64,000 bases of DNA from contig CAVTRN010000001.1 of the NCBI GenBank assembly GCA_963737155.1, positions 1,376,001 to 1,440,000 on the forward strand, in the 5' to 3' direction. The translations under genes and the position numbers were made by a program. How positions within the stretch are numbered: the stretch's first letter is position 1; the number at the start of each line of letters is the position of its first letter. Source of the DNA: Nitrospirota bacterium. Lineage in GTDB: Bacteria; Nitrospirota; UBA9217. The notes under the pieces are model-generated. The model saw only the letters and a list, made by a program, of their open reading frames with translations, had not been told where the DNA came from and ran no database searches. Shown here in pieces: positions 2,901 to 54,980 of this stretch.

Positions 2901-3389
2901 TCATTCAGCGGCCCGTATGCGTTCGAAGGTTCCGCTTTTCCCGCCCGATTTTTTCAAAAGGACAATATTAGTTACTGTCATGGAGCGGTCCGCGGATTTG
3001 CACATATCGTAGATTGTGAGCCCCGCAACTGCAACTGCGGTCAGGGCTTCCATTTCAACGCCTGTCCGGTCGGTTGTCGTAACCGTGGCTCGGATCAGTA
3101 CGCTCGACATCTCATGGTCCGGTTCAAACGCAATCACGACTGCTGAAAGACGTAGCGGGTGGGTAAGGGGTATGAGTTCAGGAGTTTTTTTTGCAGCCAT
3201 GATGCCCGCCACTCGGGCAATGCCGAACACGTCTCCCTTGGCGACCTTCCGATCAAGAATGAGCGAGAGCGTTTCGGGCAGCATGGTGACACGGCCCTCG
3301 GCAATTGCCTCGCGAGCAGTTTCCTCTTTGCCCGAGACATCAACCATGCGCGCGGCGCCCTGATCGTCGAAATGCGTAAACTCAGCCAT
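2901..3389 (-). CDS. moaC: Cyclic pyranopterin monophosphate synthase MoaC
   Basis: [46 protein letters not shown] and KSGGKSG motifs. Confidence 0.97.
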
Positions 3390-3422
3390 GCTTTTTTATT
3401 GATCCTCTCTCATTCCTGGATT

Positions 3423-4412
3423 TTAACCCCCGATTTTCGACATGGTTCTCCGAAAGCATCCCGGTTCAGATTCCGAAAGGTGATGACACTTCGGCTTGAT
3501 CTCAAGAGCTCGCCTGAGCAGATGTTCGAGCTCCGCGTCATTGCATCCGCTTCGCAGGGGAGACTTGACATCGATCTCCCTGTCGGACAGAAGGCAGGGC
3601 CGCACCTTCCCGTCCGCGGTCAGCCGAAGACGCCTGCAGGAACCACAGAAATGCTTGCTGATGGGACTGATGAATCCAATCACACCCTGGGCGCAGGGTA
3701 TCTGGAAGTTGGCCGAAGGGCCTGCGGATGGGGATGACGTGAACGGCACGAGTGCGCCGAATTTCCTTTCAATCGCAGCACGGACTTGGTCCGATGATAT
3801 GCACTCATCCTTGTGCCAGCGGTCCTTTGCGCCGATTGGCATGAACTCGATAAAACGTACGTGGAGCCTTCGCTTAAGCGTTAAAAGGGCGAAATCAACG
3901 ACTTCATCGTCATTCAGCCCCCGAACCGGCACCATGTTCAGTTTGATCGGAAAAAAACCGAGCTCTTCAGCCCGGTTGATGCCGCGCCAGACCGCATGCC
4001 AGTTGTCGCTTCCAGTAATCTTATGGAACCTGTCAGGCTTCAAGGAGTCTAGGCTGATGTTGAGGCGCGGTTTCCCGGCTAGCACCAGGTTTTCAATCAT
4101 ATCTGCGAGAAGCACACCGTTCGTGGTCAGACTGATGTCCTCGACCCCTCTAAATCGACGAAGCGATGCGATAAGGTCGACGATGCCGCGCCTCAGGAGC
4201 GGTTCTCCGCCGGTCACCCGGATTCGGGAGATCCCGAGCCGCGCCGCAATGGACACGAGCCGTTGAATTTCCTCATAGGTTAGTATGTCCCGGTGCTCCA
4301 GCATCTTCATCTCCCCTCGGGGCTTGCAGTAGACACATGCAAGATTGCACCGGTCAGTCACGGAAATCCGCAGATAGTCGATGCGGCGGTGATAGGAGTC
4401 GACAAGTGTCAT
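3423..4412 (-). CDS. moaA: GTP 3',8-cyclase MoaA (radical SAM)
   Basis: YLRISVTDRCNLACVYC, TGGEPLLR, FCGSCRRLRLTADG..PCL and C-terminal MSKIGG. Confidence 0.97.
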   Translation of the reverse strand: MTLVDSYHRRIDYLRISVTDRCNLACVYCKPRGEMKMLEHRDILTYEEIQRLVSIAARLGISRIRVTGGEPLLRRGIVDLIASLRRFRGVEDISLTTNGVLLADMIENLVLAGKPRLNISLDSLKPDRFHKITGSDNWHAVWRGINRAEELGFFPIKLNMVPVRGLNDDEVVDFALLTLKRRLHVRFIEFMPIGAKDRWHKDECISSDQVRAAIERKFGALVPFTSSPSAGPSANFQIPCAQGVIGFISPISKHFCGSCRRLRLTADGKVRPCLLSDREIDVKSPLRSGCNDAELEHLLRRALEIKPKCHHLSESEPGCFRRTMSKIGG

Positions 4413-4496: not shown

Positions 4497-5598
4497 TCAT
4501 TCGATTTTTATCCAGCGGCCATTTTTTTTCTCAACTTTAAAAAGCAGCTTGATTGAGGCGTTGTCCCCGCAGTAGATATATTTCATATGTGTCTCCGAAA
4601 ACCGCACCTCAACCAAGTAGGTGCTTTTGCAGAAAACCAGTTTTTTCAACATCCTCTCATCGAGCCATGACTCATTCGCCGGAAGGGCTTGAAGTTTGGA
4701 AACATCATATTTCAGATCTTTCTCATTCCTAGGTAAATCATGATTGCTGAAGAAATCGCCAATTTTTTTCATGAGCACGGCTTCTGCTTGCCTGCTGCTT
4801 GTCGTTAAACCGTTTAAAACGGGTTCTTTTGCAGATGCCCTTGTCTTTTCTGCAATGGCGAAGGAGCGTTGCTCGACCTCTAGGTGGGGCGTCTTCTTCT
4901 TAGATGCCACAGCGTAATCCTGCAGATTTGTGCAGGCAGGAGCCTCAGATGCTGGGGTGGTTTTTTCCATGCGTACTGATTCCCCTGCAGGTGCGGCCTG
5001 CTTTGCACGATTGGCCTTATCGAAGGTGGTAGCTGTTTCTTCGTCCTTGCGAACCGGCAGCGAAGGTGCCGTGTATTCAAGTTTCATATCCAGTGATTTG
5101 TAGGCCTGCGATTGTGGGATCTGCTGTGAAGGGAGTGAGGAGTTTTCTTCTTTACGCAGACCATTCAGTTCTTGATCAGACAGGGATAACCCAGGGCTCG
5201 CAGCATACTGCCCCGTTGAGAAACGTTTCGCCGGCAGTTTAAGGGATCGGGATGAGAGGTCAATGTTCCTATAGACATAGAACGCGCTGACGATCAGCAA
5301 GATAATAACCGCGGCGTGGATCGGCATTTTGATGAGGAGCGGGAAAAAGAGTTTTTGGAACAGACTTTTTTGCTCAGTCTTTTCTGAATGGATCCTTACC
5401 ATGATTTTCTTTGTTATCCAGTTGAGGCTCCATGTCCTCGATGGTCTGCATGTGCACGATGGTTTTTTGCAATTCGAGAAAAGCATCGTTGCAGACCGAA
5501 CACGTCTGGAGATGGGCGTCTATTTCTGCTTTTTCTTCAACCGTGACCGAACCGTCGATATATTCGGAAAGCCTGTGACGTATTTCATTATGTCCCAT
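4497..5598 (-). pseudogene. Zinc-binding (zf-HC2) transmembrane anti-sigma factor, DUF2275-like, frameshifted
   Basis: ATG at 5598 with AGGAG RBS; LSEYIDG..HLQTCSVC (HxxxCxxC) in one frame, continuing after ~5425 in another frame (WITKKIM..TM helix..C-terminal domain). Confidence 0.8.
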
Positions 5599-6440
5599 TG
5601 AAGATCTCCTACAACATGCTAAAGTCAGTCTTTTTTGCCATTTTGTTTTTCTGAACAAGTGAGTTTTTACCGTTTTCGCGTAATTTCAGCACGCTTCTTA
5701 TACCATCATGAGGAAAATCCTGAAAATCGCAGATGTATCGTCAAACTATTAAGCTTAGAACACAGAGAACATACGGTATTCAGTGAGTTATCAGTCACTG
5801 GTATTTCCCCCCAGATGCCTCTTATTACCCAGCGTTTCTGATCCTTGATGGATCAACGACGAGAGCACAGGGTATCTTATTGAAAAAACAGGCGCGGCAT
5901 TTAGTTGGCATTTCTTTGCGGCCTCTGTGTTTCATTCTTGCCTATCTGGTATTCATAAAACTTTCGACTACATCATCGGGAGAGTCAGTACCTCACGAAA
6001 TCCTTGTCCGTACATCTGAGCCTTTAGTTGTACCTCCTGCCGTTTGAGTCTGATGAGCGCAGACTTTTCTTTTGAAGGCGAGTAAATTGTGATTTGGCCG
6101 CCGTTTGTCAAAAAACGGTTCGTCAAGAGAAAATGCCTCGCATTCATTGTTTAAGCCCGTTCTTCAAGGGGCTAACGATTATGCCTGTCAGCTAAGTAGT
6201 GAATTTAGACTCTCCCCAGAAGGAACCGAGATTTTTGTACAGTGGCACAAATGTGTTCTGCACGGCCTCGTAGGCTTCCCCATAAACATTTGTACGTCAG
6301 CAAGTATTTTGTTTAGCATCCTTTTCTGTTGTCTGCTCACCGGCGTCTCGAAGCGTTCAGATCGACCTGCTGTAACGAGGGTACAATGGTTGCATCGGTC
6401 CGATCCAAACATTTCGCTACTTCCTGTTTTTTGAGACAAT
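5598..6440 (-). pseudogene. Heavily decayed ECF (RpoE/SigW-like) sigma factor
   Basis: Fragments in shifting frames: DLNA.ETPVSRQQKRMLN, EAYEAVQNTFVPLYKNLGSFWGESKFTT*L (region 2), FREVLTL and LKLRE.TVKTHLFR (region 4); abuts the anti-sigma start. Confidence 0.72.
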
Positions 6441-6553
6441 GCTGCCGCAGGCTATGTACCATTTTGCATGGTATGATGATTGTATCTCAAAAATTTTACT
6501 TTTGCATTGCTAAAATGATATTATAAATGATAAAGAGTAAAAAGGAGGACACT

Positions 6554-6772
6554 ATGACGGAGAAAGTAAAAATTTTCGGGAAAGCGAGCTGACCGCATAC
6601 AGAAAAAGCCAGGTCGGCTTTTCGCGACAATGCGGTCTACTATGATGTCAAGGCGGAAAGTGAAAAACTGGATGAGATGCTGAGATATTCAAAGGGTGTG
6701 CGGAAGGTACCGACTATCGTGGAAGGTGGCAAGGTAAGCATCGGCTATGACGGCGGCGCATGAGGAGTATAG
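6554..6772 (+). CDS. Glutaredoxin-like selenoprotein with two selenocysteines (UPHT active site, C-terminal U-G-V-stop; Uxx-star type)
   Basis: AGGAGG RBS; MTEKVKIFGKAS-U-PHTEKARSAFRDNAVYYDVKAESEKLDEMLRYSKGVRKVPTIVEGGKVSIGYDGGA-U-GV*; TGA at 6590 and 6761, each followed by a SECIS-like hairpin; Grx cis-Pro motif VPTI. Confidence 0.88.
6602..6623 (+). promoter_or_regulatory. SECIS element for UGA 6590
   Basis: Stem AAAAGCC/GGCTTTT with loop AGGTC, starting ~11 nt after the UGA; loop resembles the E. coli fdhF SECIS loop (AGGUCU). Confidence 0.78.
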
Positions 6773-6791
6773 GGGCGGCGGTCTGCCGCCC
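6773..6791 (+). promoter_or_regulatory. SECIS element for UGA 6761, lying just after the TAG stop
   Basis: Stem GGGCGGC/GCCGCCC with loop GGTCT, 9 nt after the UGA. Confidence 0.78.
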
Positions 6792-6890
6792 AGAGTTATA
6801 TTTTGCCAAGGGTCAGAGAGCTGATCGGCAGTAATGATTACAAAAACGATATTTCTAGGCAAAAATATTTTGAGAGGAAGAAGATAAAGA

Positions 6891-7448
6891 ATGACTCTAA
6901 GCGGTTTTGTCCTAAATAAGGAAGAGGCAGTGCTTTTGATTATTGATTTTCAGGAGCGTCTTGCCGCAATCATGAAGGAGAAAGACAAAGTCGTGAAAAA
7001 CTGCCAGCACCTGCTTGAGTTGGCGAAAATGCAGGGTATCCCGGTCGTCGTGACTGAGCAGTATCCCAAAGGCTTGGGCAGAACCGTGCCTGAGCTCCGG
7101 TCGGCAGTTCCGGACTATAAACCGATTGAAAAAACGGCCTTCAACTGCTGTGGAGAGCCGGCATTCGTAGCGGACATCAAAAAACTTGGGAAGAAGCAGA
7201 TTGTCATTACCGGCATGGAGACGCATATTTGTGTGCTCCAAACCACGATAGGGCTCTTACAGCTTGGCTTCACCGTTCATGCTGTGCAAGATGCAATAAT
7301 TTCGCGAACAAAGGATAACTGGAGGACCGGGATTGCGTTCATGCGTGATGCCGGCGCTGTCGTGACGTGCACGGAGACGGTTCTGTTCCAGCTCCTTAAG
7401 GTCGCGGGTACTGAGGAGTTTAAAAGAATATCGCAGAGAATAAAATGA
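6891..7448 (+). CDS. Isochorismatase-family cysteine hydrolase (YcaC/ISOC2-like)
   Basis: LLIIDFQERL, TEQYPKGLG.TV, EKTAFNC and GMETHICVLQT (Asp-Lys-Cys triad). Confidence 0.92.
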   Translation: MTLSGFVLNKEEAVLLIIDFQERLAAIMKEKDKVVKNCQHLLELAKMQGIPVVVTEQYPKGLGRTVPELRSAVPDYKPIEKTAFNCCGEPAFVADIKKLGKKQIVITGMETHICVLQTTIGLLQLGFTVHAVQDAIISRTKDNWRTGIAFMRDAGAVVTCTETVLFQLLKVAGTEEFKRISQRIK

Positions 7449-36540: not shown

Positions 36541-36616
36541 GCCACCGTAACTCAGTTGGTAGAGTAGCTGATTTGTAATCAGCCTGTCGGGGGTTCGAGT
36601 CCCTTCGGTGGCTCCA
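36541..36616 (+). tRNA. tRNA-Thr(TGT)
   Basis: Cloverleaf; anticodon arm GCTGA-TT TGT AA-TCAGC; CCA end. Confidence 0.97.
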
Positions 36617-36721
36617 TTTTCTGGCAACCTTATTCGAGAAGCAGGTTTTGAAAGCGGTTCCCGAACATTTTTTGTAGTGGTGTAGGTGCAGTTCTAGAAC
36701 GGCTGAAGTATTGAAGTTCCC

Positions 36722-36807
36722 GGGGAGGTGCCCGAGTGGCCAAAGGGAACAGACTGTAAATCTGTCGGCGTCAGCCTACGGAGGTTCGAAACCTCCCCTC
36801 CCCACCA
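36722..36807 (+). tRNA. tRNA-Tyr(GTA)
   Basis: ACAGA-CT GTA AA-TCTGT, long variable arm, CCA end. Confidence 0.97.
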
Positions 36808-36890
36808 ATTGTAAATAAGGATCGAGGATTGATCGCGGAGTGCGGATTTGGAAGCGGGAAATCTGTAAGCCGTAATCCGATATCGAAAAA

Positions 36891-36967
36891 GCGGGAATAG
36901 CTCAGCTGGCTAGAGCGCAAGCCTTCCAAGCTTGGGGTCGCGGGTTCGAATCCCGTTTCCCGCTCCA
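36891..36967 (+). tRNA. tRNA-Gly(TCC)
   Basis: CAAGC-CT TCC AA-GCTTG; CCA end. Confidence 0.97.
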
Positions 36968-37062
36968 GTTTCTAGAGTTGTGAGTCTATAAAGTTTTTTG
37001 AGTTCATCGGATTCGACTCAATGAACCCTCGAGATTCGTAACTCAACAAACTCAGAAAATCC

Positions 37063-37138
37063 GCCCATGTAGCTCAGTTGGTAGAGCACATCCTTGGTAA
37101 GGATGAGGTCAGCGGTTCAATCCCGCTCATGGGCTCCA
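37063..37138 (+). tRNA. tRNA-Thr(GGT)
   Basis: CATCC-TT GGT AA-GGATG; CCA end. Confidence 0.97.
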
Positions 37139-37221
37139 GACAATTAGTTATTCAGGTCTGTTTAGTAATTTTTTGTACGGGCCAATCGCAATCTTTCACT
37201 TCGCGGCAGGAGGGGTAAAGT

Positions 37222-38421
37222 ATGGCAAAGGCAAAATTTGAGAGGACAAAACCTCATGTGAACGTGGGAACCATTGGCCACGTGGACCACGGCAAAACGA
37301 CCTTGACGGCCGCCATCACGAAGGTGCTCTCCTTCAAGAACATGGCGAGCTTTGTATCCTATGACAACATCGACAAGGCGCCGGAAGAACGGGAACGCGG
37401 CATCACAATCGCCACGGCGCATGTTGAATACTCGACAGAGAACCGGCACTATGCCCACGTCGACTGTCCCGGCCATGCCGATTACGTGAAGAACATGATC
37501 ACGGGGGCGGCGCAGATGGACGGAGCGATCCTGGTGGTATCTGCCGCCGACGGTCCGATGCCCCAGACCCGCGAGCACATTCTTCTCGCCCGTCAGGTAG
37601 GCGTGCCCTATATCGTCGTCTACATGAACAAAGTAGATATGGTGGACGACCCCGAGCTGATCGAACTCGTCGAGCTCGAGATCCGGGAGCTTCTATCCAA
37701 GTACCAGTTCCCAGGGGACAAGACCCCCATTGTCAAGGGAAGCGCCCTGAAGGCGCTCCAGAGCGACAGTAAGGACGTCAACGCGCCTGAGTACAAGAGC
37801 ATCCTGGAGCTGATGGCGGCTGTGGATAGCTACATACCCCAGCCGAAGCGCGACGTCGATAAGCCCTATCTGATGCCGATTGAAGACGTGTTCTCTATCG
37901 CAGGCCGCGGTACGGTGGTGACGGGCAGGATCGAGCGCGGCATCGTGAAGGTTAGCGACGAAATTGAGATTGTCGGAATCAAGCCGACGCAGAAGACGGT
38001 AGTGACGGGCGTGGAGATGTTCCGGAAGCTTCTGGACCGGGGCGAAGCGGGCGACAATGTCGGCGTGCTTCTCCGCGGTACCAAGAAGGAAGACGTGGAG
38101 CGCGGGATGGTTTTGGCGAAGCCGGGCAGCATCACGCCACATACGAAATTCAAGGCTGAGGCGTATATTCTCACGAAGGAAGAAGGTGGCCGACACACGC
38201 CGTTCTTCAACGGCTATCGTCCGCAGTTCTATTTCCGGACGACGGACGTGACGGGCGTGGTAAAGCTTGCCGAGGGAGTGGAGATGGTGATGCCGGGCGA
38301 CAACATGACCTGCAGCGTCGAACTCATCACCCCGATCGCCATGGACCAGGGCCTGCGCTTCGCCATCCGTGAAGGCGGCAGGACCGTGGGCGCCGGCGTT
38401 ATCACCGAAGTGATCGAGTAA
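37222..38421 (+). CDS. tuf: Elongation factor Tu (copy 1)
   Basis: [21 protein letters not shown] and [10 protein letters not shown]. Confidence 0.99.
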
Positions 38422-38490
38422 AAAATTGCAGGCAGCAGATGTCTTTGTCGCGCGATTATCAAATTGAAGGGGTGAAGAGAGGCTACTACC

Positions 38491-38643
38491 ATGCGGGAAA
38501 TCGTACTTCTCGCTTGCGGTGAATGCAAGCGTAAAAATTATTCCACGATAAAGAATAAAAGAAACACACCGGACAAACTCAATCTGGATAAATATTGCAG
38601 ATTCTGTCGCAAACATACGGTGCACAAGGAAACAAAGGCGTAA
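38491..38643 (+). CDS. rpmG: 50S ribosomal protein L33 (zinc-binding form; absent from ORF track)
   Basis: [29 protein letters not shown]...[17 protein letters not shown]. Confidence 0.95.
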
Positions 38644-38677
38644 CTTGAAAGTGCAGGGTGCTGCGGGGTTAGGACAC

Positions 38678-38753
38678 AGGCCAGTAGCTCTAATGGTAGA
38701 GCTCCGGACTCCAAATCCGGCTGCTGGGGGTTCGAGTCCCTCCTGGCCTGCCA
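38678..38753 (+). tRNA. tRNA-Trp(CCA)
   Basis: CCGGA-CT CCA AA-TCCGG; usual position before secE. Confidence 0.97.
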
Positions 38754-53780: not shown

Positions 53781-54980
53781 ATGGCAAAGGCAAAATTTGA
53801 GAGGACAAAACCTCATGTGAACGTGGGAACCATTGGCCACGTGGACCACGGCAAAACGACCTTGACGGCCGCCATCACGAAGGTGCTCTCCTTCAAGAAC
53901 ATGGCGAGCTTTGTATCCTATGACAACATCGACAAGGCGCCGGAAGAACGGGAACGCGGCATCACAATCGCCACGGCGCATGTTGAATACTCGACAGAGA
54001 ACCGGCACTATGCCCACGTCGACTGTCCCGGCCATGCCGATTACGTGAAGAACATGATCACGGGGGCGGCGCAGATGGACGGAGCGATCCTGGTGGTATC
54101 TGCCGCCGACGGTCCGATGCCCCAGACCCGCGAGCACATTCTTCTCGCCCGTCAGGTAGGCGTGCCCTATATCGTCGTCTACATGAACAAAGTAGATATG
54201 GTGGACGACCCCGAGCTGATCGAACTCGTCGAGCTCGAGATCCGGGAGCTTCTATCCAAGTACCAGTTCCCAGGGGACAAGACCCCCATTGTCAAGGGAA
54301 GCGCCCTGAAGGCGCTCCAGAGCGACAGTAAGGACGTCAACGCGCCTGAGTACAAGAGCATCCTGGAGCTGATGGCGGCTGTGGATAGCTACATACCCCA
54401 GCCGAAGCGCGACGTCGATAAGCCCTATCTGATGCCGATTGAAGACGTGTTCTCTATCGCAGGCCGCGGTACGGTGGTGACGGGCAGGATCGAGCGCGGC
54501 ATCGTGAAGGTTAGCGACGAAATTGAGATTGTCGGAATCAAGCCGACGCAGAAGACGGTAGTGACGGGCGTGGAGATGTTCCGGAAGCTTCTGGACCGGG
54601 GCGAAGCGGGCGACAATGTCGGCGTGCTTCTCCGCGGTACCAAGAAGGAAGACGTGGAGCGCGGGATGGTTTTGGCGAAGCCGGGCAGCATCACGCCACA
54701 TACGAAATTCAAGGCTGAGGCGTATATTCTCACGAAGGAAGAAGGTGGCCGACACACGCCGTTCTTCAACGGCTATCGTCCGCAGTTCTATTTCCGGACG
54801 ACGGACGTGACGGGCGTGGTAAAGCTTGCCGAGGGAGTGGAGATGGTGATGCCGGGCGACAACATGACCTGCAGCGTCGAACTCATCACCCCGATCGCCA
54901 TGGACCAGGGCCTGCGCTTCGCCATCCGTGAAGGCGGCAGGACCGTGGGCGCCGGCGTTATCACCGAAGTGATCGAGTAA
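53781..54980 (+). CDS. tuf: Elongation factor Tu (copy 2)
   Basis: Same protein sequence as 37222-38421. Confidence 0.99.

Follow-up and report, generated by a model that had tools for sequence, protein, structure and literature searches.

Can a short reading frame that is interrupted twice by TGA be a functional gene and, if so, what might its product do? The question is raised by positions 6554-6772 of a 64,000-nucleotide stretch of DNA (hereafter the window) from a Nitrospirota bacterium (assembly GCA_963737155.1, contig CAVTRN010000001.1, positions 1,376,001 to 1,440,000 of the forward strand). In an original prediction based on the letters of the window, this frame was proposed to encode a glutaredoxin-like protein with selenocysteine (Sec, U) at codons 13 and 70. 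Here, we report that the locus, judged from its sequence, almost certainly encodes a real protein with two Sec residues. The gene is, by its sequence, a genuine member of the catalogued UXX-star selenoprotein family 1 (NCBIfam NF041114) and hence not novel. What is newly added is its gene context in one Nitrospirota family, where it is followed by genes for a cysteine hydrolase and an AhpF-like flavoprotein reductase.

Decoding of the two UGA codons

Translated with TGA as Sec, the frame reads MTEKVKIFGKASUPHTEKARSAFRDNAVYYDVKAESEKLDEMLRYSKGVRKVPTIVEGGKVSIGYDGGAUGV and is closed by TAG at 6770-6772. Inspection of the sequence bears out the gene as it had been described, with 72 codons, TGA at codon 13 in a U-P-H-T context and at codon 70 in a U-G-V-stop context, not a single Cys codon, and an AGGAGG ribosome-binding site at the expected place (Table 1). 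GGAGG-like sites precede the start in nearly all homologues. Further upstream, a block of ~75 nt has 72-90% identity to sequences upstream of the UXX-star gene in ~25 related loci (blastn). The block includes a promoter-like site at 6495-6524, detected by a promoter scan and composed of TTTACT, a spacing of 18 nt, and TATTAT preceded by TG. In an alignment of the upstream regions, TTTACTTTTGCA...AAAATGATATTAT, GATTGTATCGCAAA and TTTGTTCC are conserved.

The conservation of the two sites was analysed in 62 homologous genes read as DNA, 47 of them distinct, and two frameshifted copies were dropped before counting. In each of the latter, what seems to be a single-base indel divides the gene between two frames, reflecting assembly error or decay. 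TGA is found at codon 13 in 45 of the distinct genes and is replaced by TGC in the other two; at the C-terminal site it is invariant (47/47). The second TGA is followed by GGN in 44/47 and by GTN in 44/47, with all four synonymous codons represented at each position, and a stop after U-x-x is found in every gene (TGA in 19, TAA in 16 and TAG in 12). This purifying selection on Gly-Val past the second TGA argues that translation continues beyond it. Cys forms were sought in a profile search of 1.84 billion representative sequences that returned 516 relatives at E ≤ 0.001. Among the best 150 of these, in which position 70 was scored, the aligned residue is Cys in 11, Trp in 11 and another residue in four, and the position is uncovered in 124; at least four of the Cys70 forms among them stop two residues on, with CGV, CGI, CAV or CPV. 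On the evidence of these sequences, Cys/Sec pairs exist at both sites, as do all-Cys relatives ending in C-x-x-stop. Residues other than Cys or Sec at these positions in homologues would have refuted the original prediction; TGA or Cys is what the homologues carry.

The frame recurs widely in the phylum. Of 61 related genomes, 34 have a match to NF041114 over its cut-off, as do 77 of a wider sample of 301 genomes from the phylum, and none is found over cut-off in 14 control genomes. The related loci are from Nitrospirota, mostly metagenome-assembled genomes of Thermodesulfovibrionales type. There are 79 over-cut-off matches in the 301 genomes, of which 73 have two in-frame TGAs, five have one and one has none. 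In four of the five one-TGA rows and in the row without TGA the alignment stops before the C-terminal site, and the remaining row is a Cys13 form. The repeated occurrence of the same frame with in-frame TGAs in relatives and across the phylum shows that it did not arise by chance.

The Sec machinery, on which the original prediction depended, is complete, with selA, selB, selC and selD all found in the genome. In profile searches, selA (603.6 bits) adjoins selB (374.3 bits), both over cut-off, and selD scores 370.5 bits, likewise over cut-off, at C1:1242985-1243899 of the genome. One in-frame TGA lies inside selD, which probably encodes a selenoprotein itself. A single tRNA-Sec(UCA) was found by ARAGORN. 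The anticodon of tRNA-Trp is CCA, and tRNA-Sec is the only tRNA that reads UGA. TGA closes 702 of 1,940 open frames of at least 300 codons and is therefore a normal stop in this genome. Two stretches of the window (37258-38157 and 53817-54716, both on the + strand) resemble the GTPase part of the selB model, with scores of ~187 bits, and were taken as elongation-factor genes.

A Sec insertion sequence (SECIS) had been claimed 3´ of both UGAs, and a hairpin that fits the rules for bacterial SECIS elements is found in each place. The rules, as set out in a section of a 2026 review (PMC13188914), are a loop of 3-9 nt, a stem of 4-16 bp, a distance of 16-37 nt from the UGA, a G within the first two loop positions and an energy ≤ -7.5 kcal/mol, and both hairpins fall within these limits. 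The loop of SECIS 1, located within the coding sequence, begins 18 nt after the UGA of codon 13, and the 51-nt fold has an energy of -20.1 kcal/mol (z = -3.98, 0/200 shuffles fold as well). In the window genome it is surrounded by an outer helix (6591-6598/6630-6637). The loop of SECIS 2, past the stop, begins 16 nt after the UGA of codon 70, and its 51-nt fold has an energy of -19.4 kcal/mol, with 4/200 shuffles folding as well. Neither hairpin was matched by Rfam, the sole row in 6000-7400 being a chance hit to SNORA16 (E = 2.3).

Covariation was assessed in 31 homologous sequences with 500 shuffles per hairpin. For SECIS 2, 90.6% of the cells are paired compared to 80.9% in shuffles, and six of the seven pairs are changed on both sides, a result reached by 0/500 shuffles; controls slid along the sequence have 13-58% of cells paired. 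Three distant rows were misplaced by MAFFT in the alignment of this hairpin, leaving gaps in five of the seven pairs, and each of these rows has a compensated 7-bp hairpin of its own when inspected by eye. For SECIS 1, 84.9% of the cells are paired, and 11 cells are changed on both sides versus 3.9 expected (0/500 shuffles). Covariation thus backs the 3´ hairpin strongly and the coding hairpin partly. When a crude hairpin finder was run on the 47 distinct genes, a hairpin followed codon 13 in 45, and one of the two exceptions encodes Cys13; after the C-terminal UGA a hairpin was found in all 47. In the genes that end in TGA, the stop is placed 9 nt after the Sec-TGA, such that one and the same codon means Sec and then stop. 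The two are presumably told apart by their spacing to the single hairpin.

Taken together, the hairpins, the machinery and the Cys residues aligned at both positions support that both TGAs behave as Sec codons. An alternative is that only the first UGA specifies Sec and that the second is a true stop, ending a protein of 69 residues and followed by a hairpin that acts as a terminator or stabiliser. The 3´ untranslated region is the usual place for a terminator, and this location of the hairpin, like the modest result of the fold shuffles (z = -2.37), is in keeping with such a possibility. However, the hairpin is not followed by a T-run, the terminator scan makes no call, and a loop with a SECIS-type G is found at a distance of 16-20 nt from the UGA in 47/47 genes. 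The retention of Gly-Val and a stop after the TGA, with free use of synonymous codons, is similarly difficult to explain for an untranslated sequence, and further counter-evidence comes from the Cys homologues ending in C-x-x-stop and from the definition of the curated family by its U-x-x-star motif. We consider a 69-residue product to be very improbable. The idea of a glutaredoxin pseudogene in decay, or of TGA being read as Trp or Gly, is barely credible. It draws on public protein records of relatives that show W at both positions, and Trp here was indeed what the original prediction had named as the mark of a simple pseudogene. At the DNA level, TGA occupies the C-terminal site of all 62 genes, codon 13 is either TGA or TGC, and TGG is never seen at either position. 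The two TGAs are moreover fixed at the same positions across many genera, and the tRNA complement and stop usage described above also speak against this idea. Where they can be compared with the genes read as DNA, the Trp residues in public records are best read as TGA translated under another code by the gene caller.

The gene had been presented as hidden and missed by open reading frame (ORF) calling. This holds for naive callers: under translation table 11, no + strand ORF of at least 40 amino acids spans the frame, so that a plain ORF caller splits the gene. It does not hold for the NCBI annotation library, which has a curated model of the family. Each of the 14 nearest public records is fragmentary, is truncated or shows Trp at Sec positions. 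More broadly, the public records (P0004-P0017 and P0018-P0167) include inter-TGA fragments of 42-49 residues, forms truncated before the C-terminal Sec, and forms with Trp in place of Sec. These records are gene-calling artefacts for the family, and the case illustrates how genes with two Sec codons get lost or garbled in public protein sets.

Table 1. Positions in the window of the UXX-star gene, its signals and the two genes downstream
Feature	Position	Strand	Basis and details
UXX-star selenoprotein family 1 gene	6554-6772	+	72 sense codons and TAG; translation with TGA = U, NF041114, PF00462
Ribosome-binding site AGGAGG	6543-6548	+	5 nt ahead of ATG 6554-6556; read from the sequence
UGA codon 13	6590-6592	+	predicted Sec at the redox position of the thioredoxin fold; context K-A-S-U-P-H-T
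UGA codon 70	6761-6763	+	predicted Sec 3 residues from the C-terminus; context D-G-G-A-U-G-V-stop
SECIS 1	6602-6623	+	within coding sequence; stem 6605-6610/6616-6621 (6 bp), loop AGGUC 6611-6615
SECIS 2	6773-6791	+	3´ untranslated region, one base past the stop; stem 6773-6779/6785-6791 (7 bp), loop GGUCU 6780-6784
Conserved upstream block with promoter-like site	6455-6528	+	promoter scan, blastn and upstream alignment; putative function
Isochorismatase-family cysteine hydrolase (ISOC2/MAR1/YcaC-like), middle gene of the trio	6891-7448	+	PF00857, 119.5 bits
AhpF-like flavoprotein disulfide reductase, 555 residues	7550-9217	+	profile, motif and 1hyu structure matches

Family membership, predicted fold and gene neighbourhood

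The protein scores 98.6 bits against the equivalog model NF041114.2 ("UXX-star selenoprotein family 1"; cut-off 72) in a match that spans residues 5-72 of the protein and positions 1-70 of the 70 in the profile. It also exceeds the cut-off of the umbrella model NF041212 (68.4 bits, cut-off 66). The two features that define the family are both present, U13-P-H-T corresponding to the U-x-x-T motif and U70-G-V-TAG to U-x-x-star. The "Uxx-star" family named in the original prediction was thus the right one. With respect to known members, the likeness extends to the full-length match, the UxxT motif, the two Sec residues, the length of ~70 residues and the glutaredoxin (Grx)-like character, and the protein from the window shows no sequence difference. 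In a table of PMC13188914 the family is listed as a two-Sec protein with a UxxT motif, and the family entry there credits Zhang & Gladyshev 2008; selenoproteome reviews, in excerpt, also use the name "Distant Grx-like protein 1". The wording "distant Grx" was not found in the main text of the 2008 Global Ocean Sampling (GOS) paper, the supplements of which may hold the first prediction of the family. Given the curated model and the two-Sec listing, the find is correct but already known. Two-Sec proteins are rare, and a full-text literature search on "UXX-star" returned the review PMC13188914 as its only source and no biochemical study of the UXX-star families, in agreement with the original prediction.

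Among models of wider scope, the protein matches Pfam PF00462 (Glutaredoxin) with 36.1 bits against a cut-off of 22.9. The nearest model outside the UXX-star families is that of the Cp9/YruB redoxins (TIGR02196), where the score of 36.2 bits is far below the cut-off of 88.55; the site is UPHT and there is no CxxC. The NrdH redoxin model TIGR02194 gives 13.4 bits (cut-off 85.75), the C-[VMI]-Q-C site being absent, and the model of classical dithiol glutaredoxins of the CPYC type (Grx3, TIGR02181) gives 24.9 bits (cut-off 90). An AlphaFold2 (AF2) model built with 16 homologues and with U shown as C has a mean predicted local distance difference test score (pLDDT) of 80.7. The order of predicted elements is strand 5-9, helix 14-26, strand 27-31, helix 36-46, and strands 54-57 and 60-63, and the C-terminal helix is absent. 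The nearest solved chains found by Foldseek are glutaredoxins, the Cp9-like BC3987 and NrdH (TM-score ~0.7, best E = 1.5e-3). Both the Pfam match and the modelled fold agree with the initial description of the protein as Grx/NrdH-like.

The UXX-star gene is the first of a trio (Table 1), with intergenic gaps of 118 and 101 nt and no terminator called between the genes by a terminator scan. The closest solved chain to the product of the middle gene is 2b34, of the ISOC2/MAR1 type (E = 3e-32), and the protein is related to YcaC. Its translation contains Asp19, Lys81 and Cys114, which we take to be the Asp-Lys-Cys triad of the family. The vicinal Cys86-Cys87 and the catalytic Cys114 are invariant in 72 sequences (33 from the cluster and 39 from solo genes). 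The neighbours of six solo hydrolase genes are unrelated housekeeping genes.

The third gene encodes a protein with an N-terminal double thioredoxin (Trx)-fold domain that carries CPYC (residues 145-148), and a thioredoxin reductase (TrxR)-like module with CATC (362-365). It matches the structure of AhpF (1hyu) over residues 42-532. The scores are below the cut-offs of the AhpF model TIGR03140 (283.8 bits vs 502.9) and the TrxR model TIGR01292 (331 vs 343.45), but the architecture is AhpF-like and both CxxC centres are present, and for this reason we name the protein AhpF-like rather than AhpF. The N-terminal site reads UPYC in one genus (two loci, from two genomes), where an in-frame TGA replaces the first Cys of CPYC. 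Such a UPYC reductase is the Sec form of a known selenoprotein type, the "AhpF N-terminal domain homologue".

Among 30 loci of relatives anchored on UXX-star, 21 have the three genes in the order UXX-star, hydrolase, AhpF-like. Two of the nine exceptions are cut by contig ends. Two are second copies that adjoin mobile-element genes, in genomes that keep another copy in the trio. The remaining five are from two other taxonomic families and have UXX-star in other contexts; outside the family of the window, a PanC-like motif was read by eye upstream in five loci. We also surveyed 80 public loci anchored on the hydrolase. Here, UXX-star is upstream and the AhpF-like gene downstream in 29 loci, and both are missing in 47. 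One locus has UXX-star and no AhpF-like gene, its contig ending right after the hydrolase, and three have the AhpF-like gene and no UXX-star, one of these being cut, with the C-terminus of UXX-star at the contig edge. Accordingly, the AhpF-like gene is downstream in 29 of the 30 hydrolase-anchored loci with UXX-star, and only two of the 80 hold the reductase truly without UXX-star. Within the taxonomic family of the window, the reductase N-terminal domain occurs in 27/27 genomes with UXX-star, and four genomes have neither.

Possible roles of the two selenols

In the mechanism that we propose, SelB and tRNA-Sec would read both UGAs as Sec, the first by means of the SECIS in the coding sequence and the second by means of the hairpin past the stop. 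Sec13 would occupy the position of the nucleophilic Cys in the Trx fold, in a U-x-x-T site without a resolving Cys. Sec70 is predicted to be placed on a Gly-rich, flexible C-terminal tail that replaces the last helix of ordinary glutaredoxins. The two selenols may then constitute a redox pair, forming a diselenide in the protein described here or, where residue 13 is Cys, a selenenylsulfide, and would cycle in a protein that serves as a small electron carrier. By analogy with AhpF, the co-encoded reductase could recycle it by passing electrons from NAD(P)H to FAD and onwards via CATC and CPYC to the UXX-star protein. The final acceptor could be the hydrolase, with its invariant Cys86, Cys87 and Cys114, or else a substrate of the peroxide type; there is no peroxiredoxin gene in the trio. 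A role as a redox carrier appears quite likely for the UXX-star protein. Our favoured overall reading, a selenium-based carrier that is recycled by the AhpF-like reductase, is on balance probable. Concerning its parts, the arguments for an intramolecular Sec13-Sec70 bond, as suggested in the original prediction, are evenly balanced, and the AhpF-like protein has roughly an equal chance of being, or not being, the UXX-star reductase in the family of the window.

Partial precedents are found in several known systems. In the system described in part of PMC3720550, Cp9, a Grx-like protein of 9 kDa from Clostridium pasteurianum, receives electrons from a TrxR-like enzyme and delivers them to a peroxiredoxin, and is encoded between the two. 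Cp9/YruB, with its partners Cp34 (TrxR-like) and Cp20 (peroxiredoxin), resembles the present case in the ~75-residue Grx fold and the placement beside a TrxR-type flavoenzyme. Unlike the UXX-star protein, Cp9 lacks Sec, contains a CxxC site and has a C-terminal helix. The system as a whole also differs, since the AhpF-like fusion described here already owns a Grx-like N-terminal domain and the third gene is for a hydrolase and not a peroxiredoxin. In class II glutaredoxins, according to a passage in PMC9854632, the active-site Cys pairs with a semi-conserved C-terminal Cys in an intramolecular disulfide that is reduced by glutathione, Trx or TrxR. These proteins, e.g. yeast Grx5, E. coli Grx4 and Chlamydomonas GRX3, have in common with UXX-star a redox residue in the active site and a second one after the last strand. 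Unlike them, the UXX-star protein has no CGFS motif, both residues are Sec, and the chain ends two residues past the second. The C-terminal Cys of class II may correspond to Sec70, a position beyond the reach of the alignment, which extends only to about residue 65.

Two selenoproteins are also relevant for comparison. Mammalian thioredoxin reductase likewise has a Sec close to its end, on a flexible, Gly-rich C-terminal tail (Gly-Cys-Sec-Gly) by which electrons are shuttled out of a buried redox centre. This tail is part of a large flavoenzyme and its Sec pairs with the neighbouring Cys, whereas in the UXX-star protein, a carrier of 72 residues, 57 residues separate Sec70 from its likely partner. 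Selenoprotein L is a eukaryotic Trx-fold protein with a natural diselenide, both Sec residues being located in one UxxU motif. The likeness is in the two Sec residues within one Trx-fold protein and the potential for a diselenide.

Several observations weigh against the favoured reading. For the coding hairpin, the number of doubly changed pairs is two, no better than in shuffles (337/500), in a comparison that is confounded by the protein code. The tail that would bring Sec70 to Sec13 (residues 64-72) is predicted with only moderate confidence (pLDDT ~67-74). The C-terminal Sec apparently also accompanies full CxxC cores. The notion that Cys or Sec is present at position 70 only where the CxxC lacks its second Cys was rejected on these grounds, several CPYC/CPHC records ending in ...GGS, where a TGA would stand. 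Sec70 is therefore not simply a substitute for an absent resolving Cys. With respect to the partners, five genomes in the family of the window have the reductase and no UXX-star match, and three loci from these genomes consist of hydrolase and reductase without UXX-star upstream. Outside the family, 7/7 genomes with UXX-star lack the AhpF-like N-terminal domain as searched with this query, and synteny confined to one family may be a product of inheritance and not of selection. Finally, we considered that hydrolases of the trio might differ from solo ones, and this was rejected, as no residue column separates the 33 from the 39.

A passage in PMC13188914 adds to these points by suggesting that the Sec residues of UXX-star may be metal ligands. 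In such a scheme, the selenolates would bind a soft metal or metalloid (Hg, As, Cu) or selenium/sulfur, and the reductase would only keep the selenols reduced. The lack of any Cys in the protein is in line with this, and none of the 47 genes has another residue in place of the C-terminal Sec, which would fit a need for selenium as such. On the other hand, all-Cys forms exist, the fold is a classic redox fold with Sec at the position of the nucleophile, the partner gene encodes a disulfide reductase, and no metal-resistance or transport gene is seen in the trio or its flanks. We regard a role in ligand binding as unlikely and continue to favour that of a recycled redox carrier.

One intriguing, if rather doubtful, possibility is that the trio makes up a dedicated NAD(P)H-driven selenium redox module, in which the N-terminal domain of the reductase, itself with Sec in one genus, would cycle a Sec13-Sec70 diselenide in the service of electron transfer to the hydrolase or of its activity. 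If true, the trio would provide the first example in bacteria of a diselenide relay for which donor and client are defined. The locus bears on the question of whether Grx scaffolds carry natural electron relays based on a diselenide or a selenenylsulfide. By placing genes for a candidate client and a candidate reductase next to UXX-star within one Nitrospirota family, the trio makes an uncharacterised two-Sec family approachable.

Other features of the window

The gene-poor gap upstream of the UXX-star gene contains a sequence of ~240 bp (5735-5976) that is repeated at least 10 more times in the genome, with 67-82% identity and with copies on both contigs. It looks, from its sequence, like a small dispersed repeat, similar to miniature inverted-repeat transposable elements or repetitive extragenic palindromes. 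On the far side of this gap, two ORFs are found on the - strand, one encoding 74 residues with a zf-HC2 domain (an anti-sigma-type zinc finger; 5377-5598) and one encoding a membrane protein of 329 residues with a weak match to DUF2275 (4497-5486). No sigma-factor gene is located beside them, and a sigma-factor partner for the zf-HC2 protein in the 950-bp gap was rejected, there being no match to Sigma70_r2 in this gap. The two ORFs overlap by ~110 nt in different frames, which could reflect a frameshift, two separate genes or an assembly error. The nearest relative seems to share the split, as judged from tblastn coordinates. Further upstream, moaC and moaA are encoded on the - strand (2901-4412), and a cluster of five tRNA genes is found on the + strand at 36541-38750.

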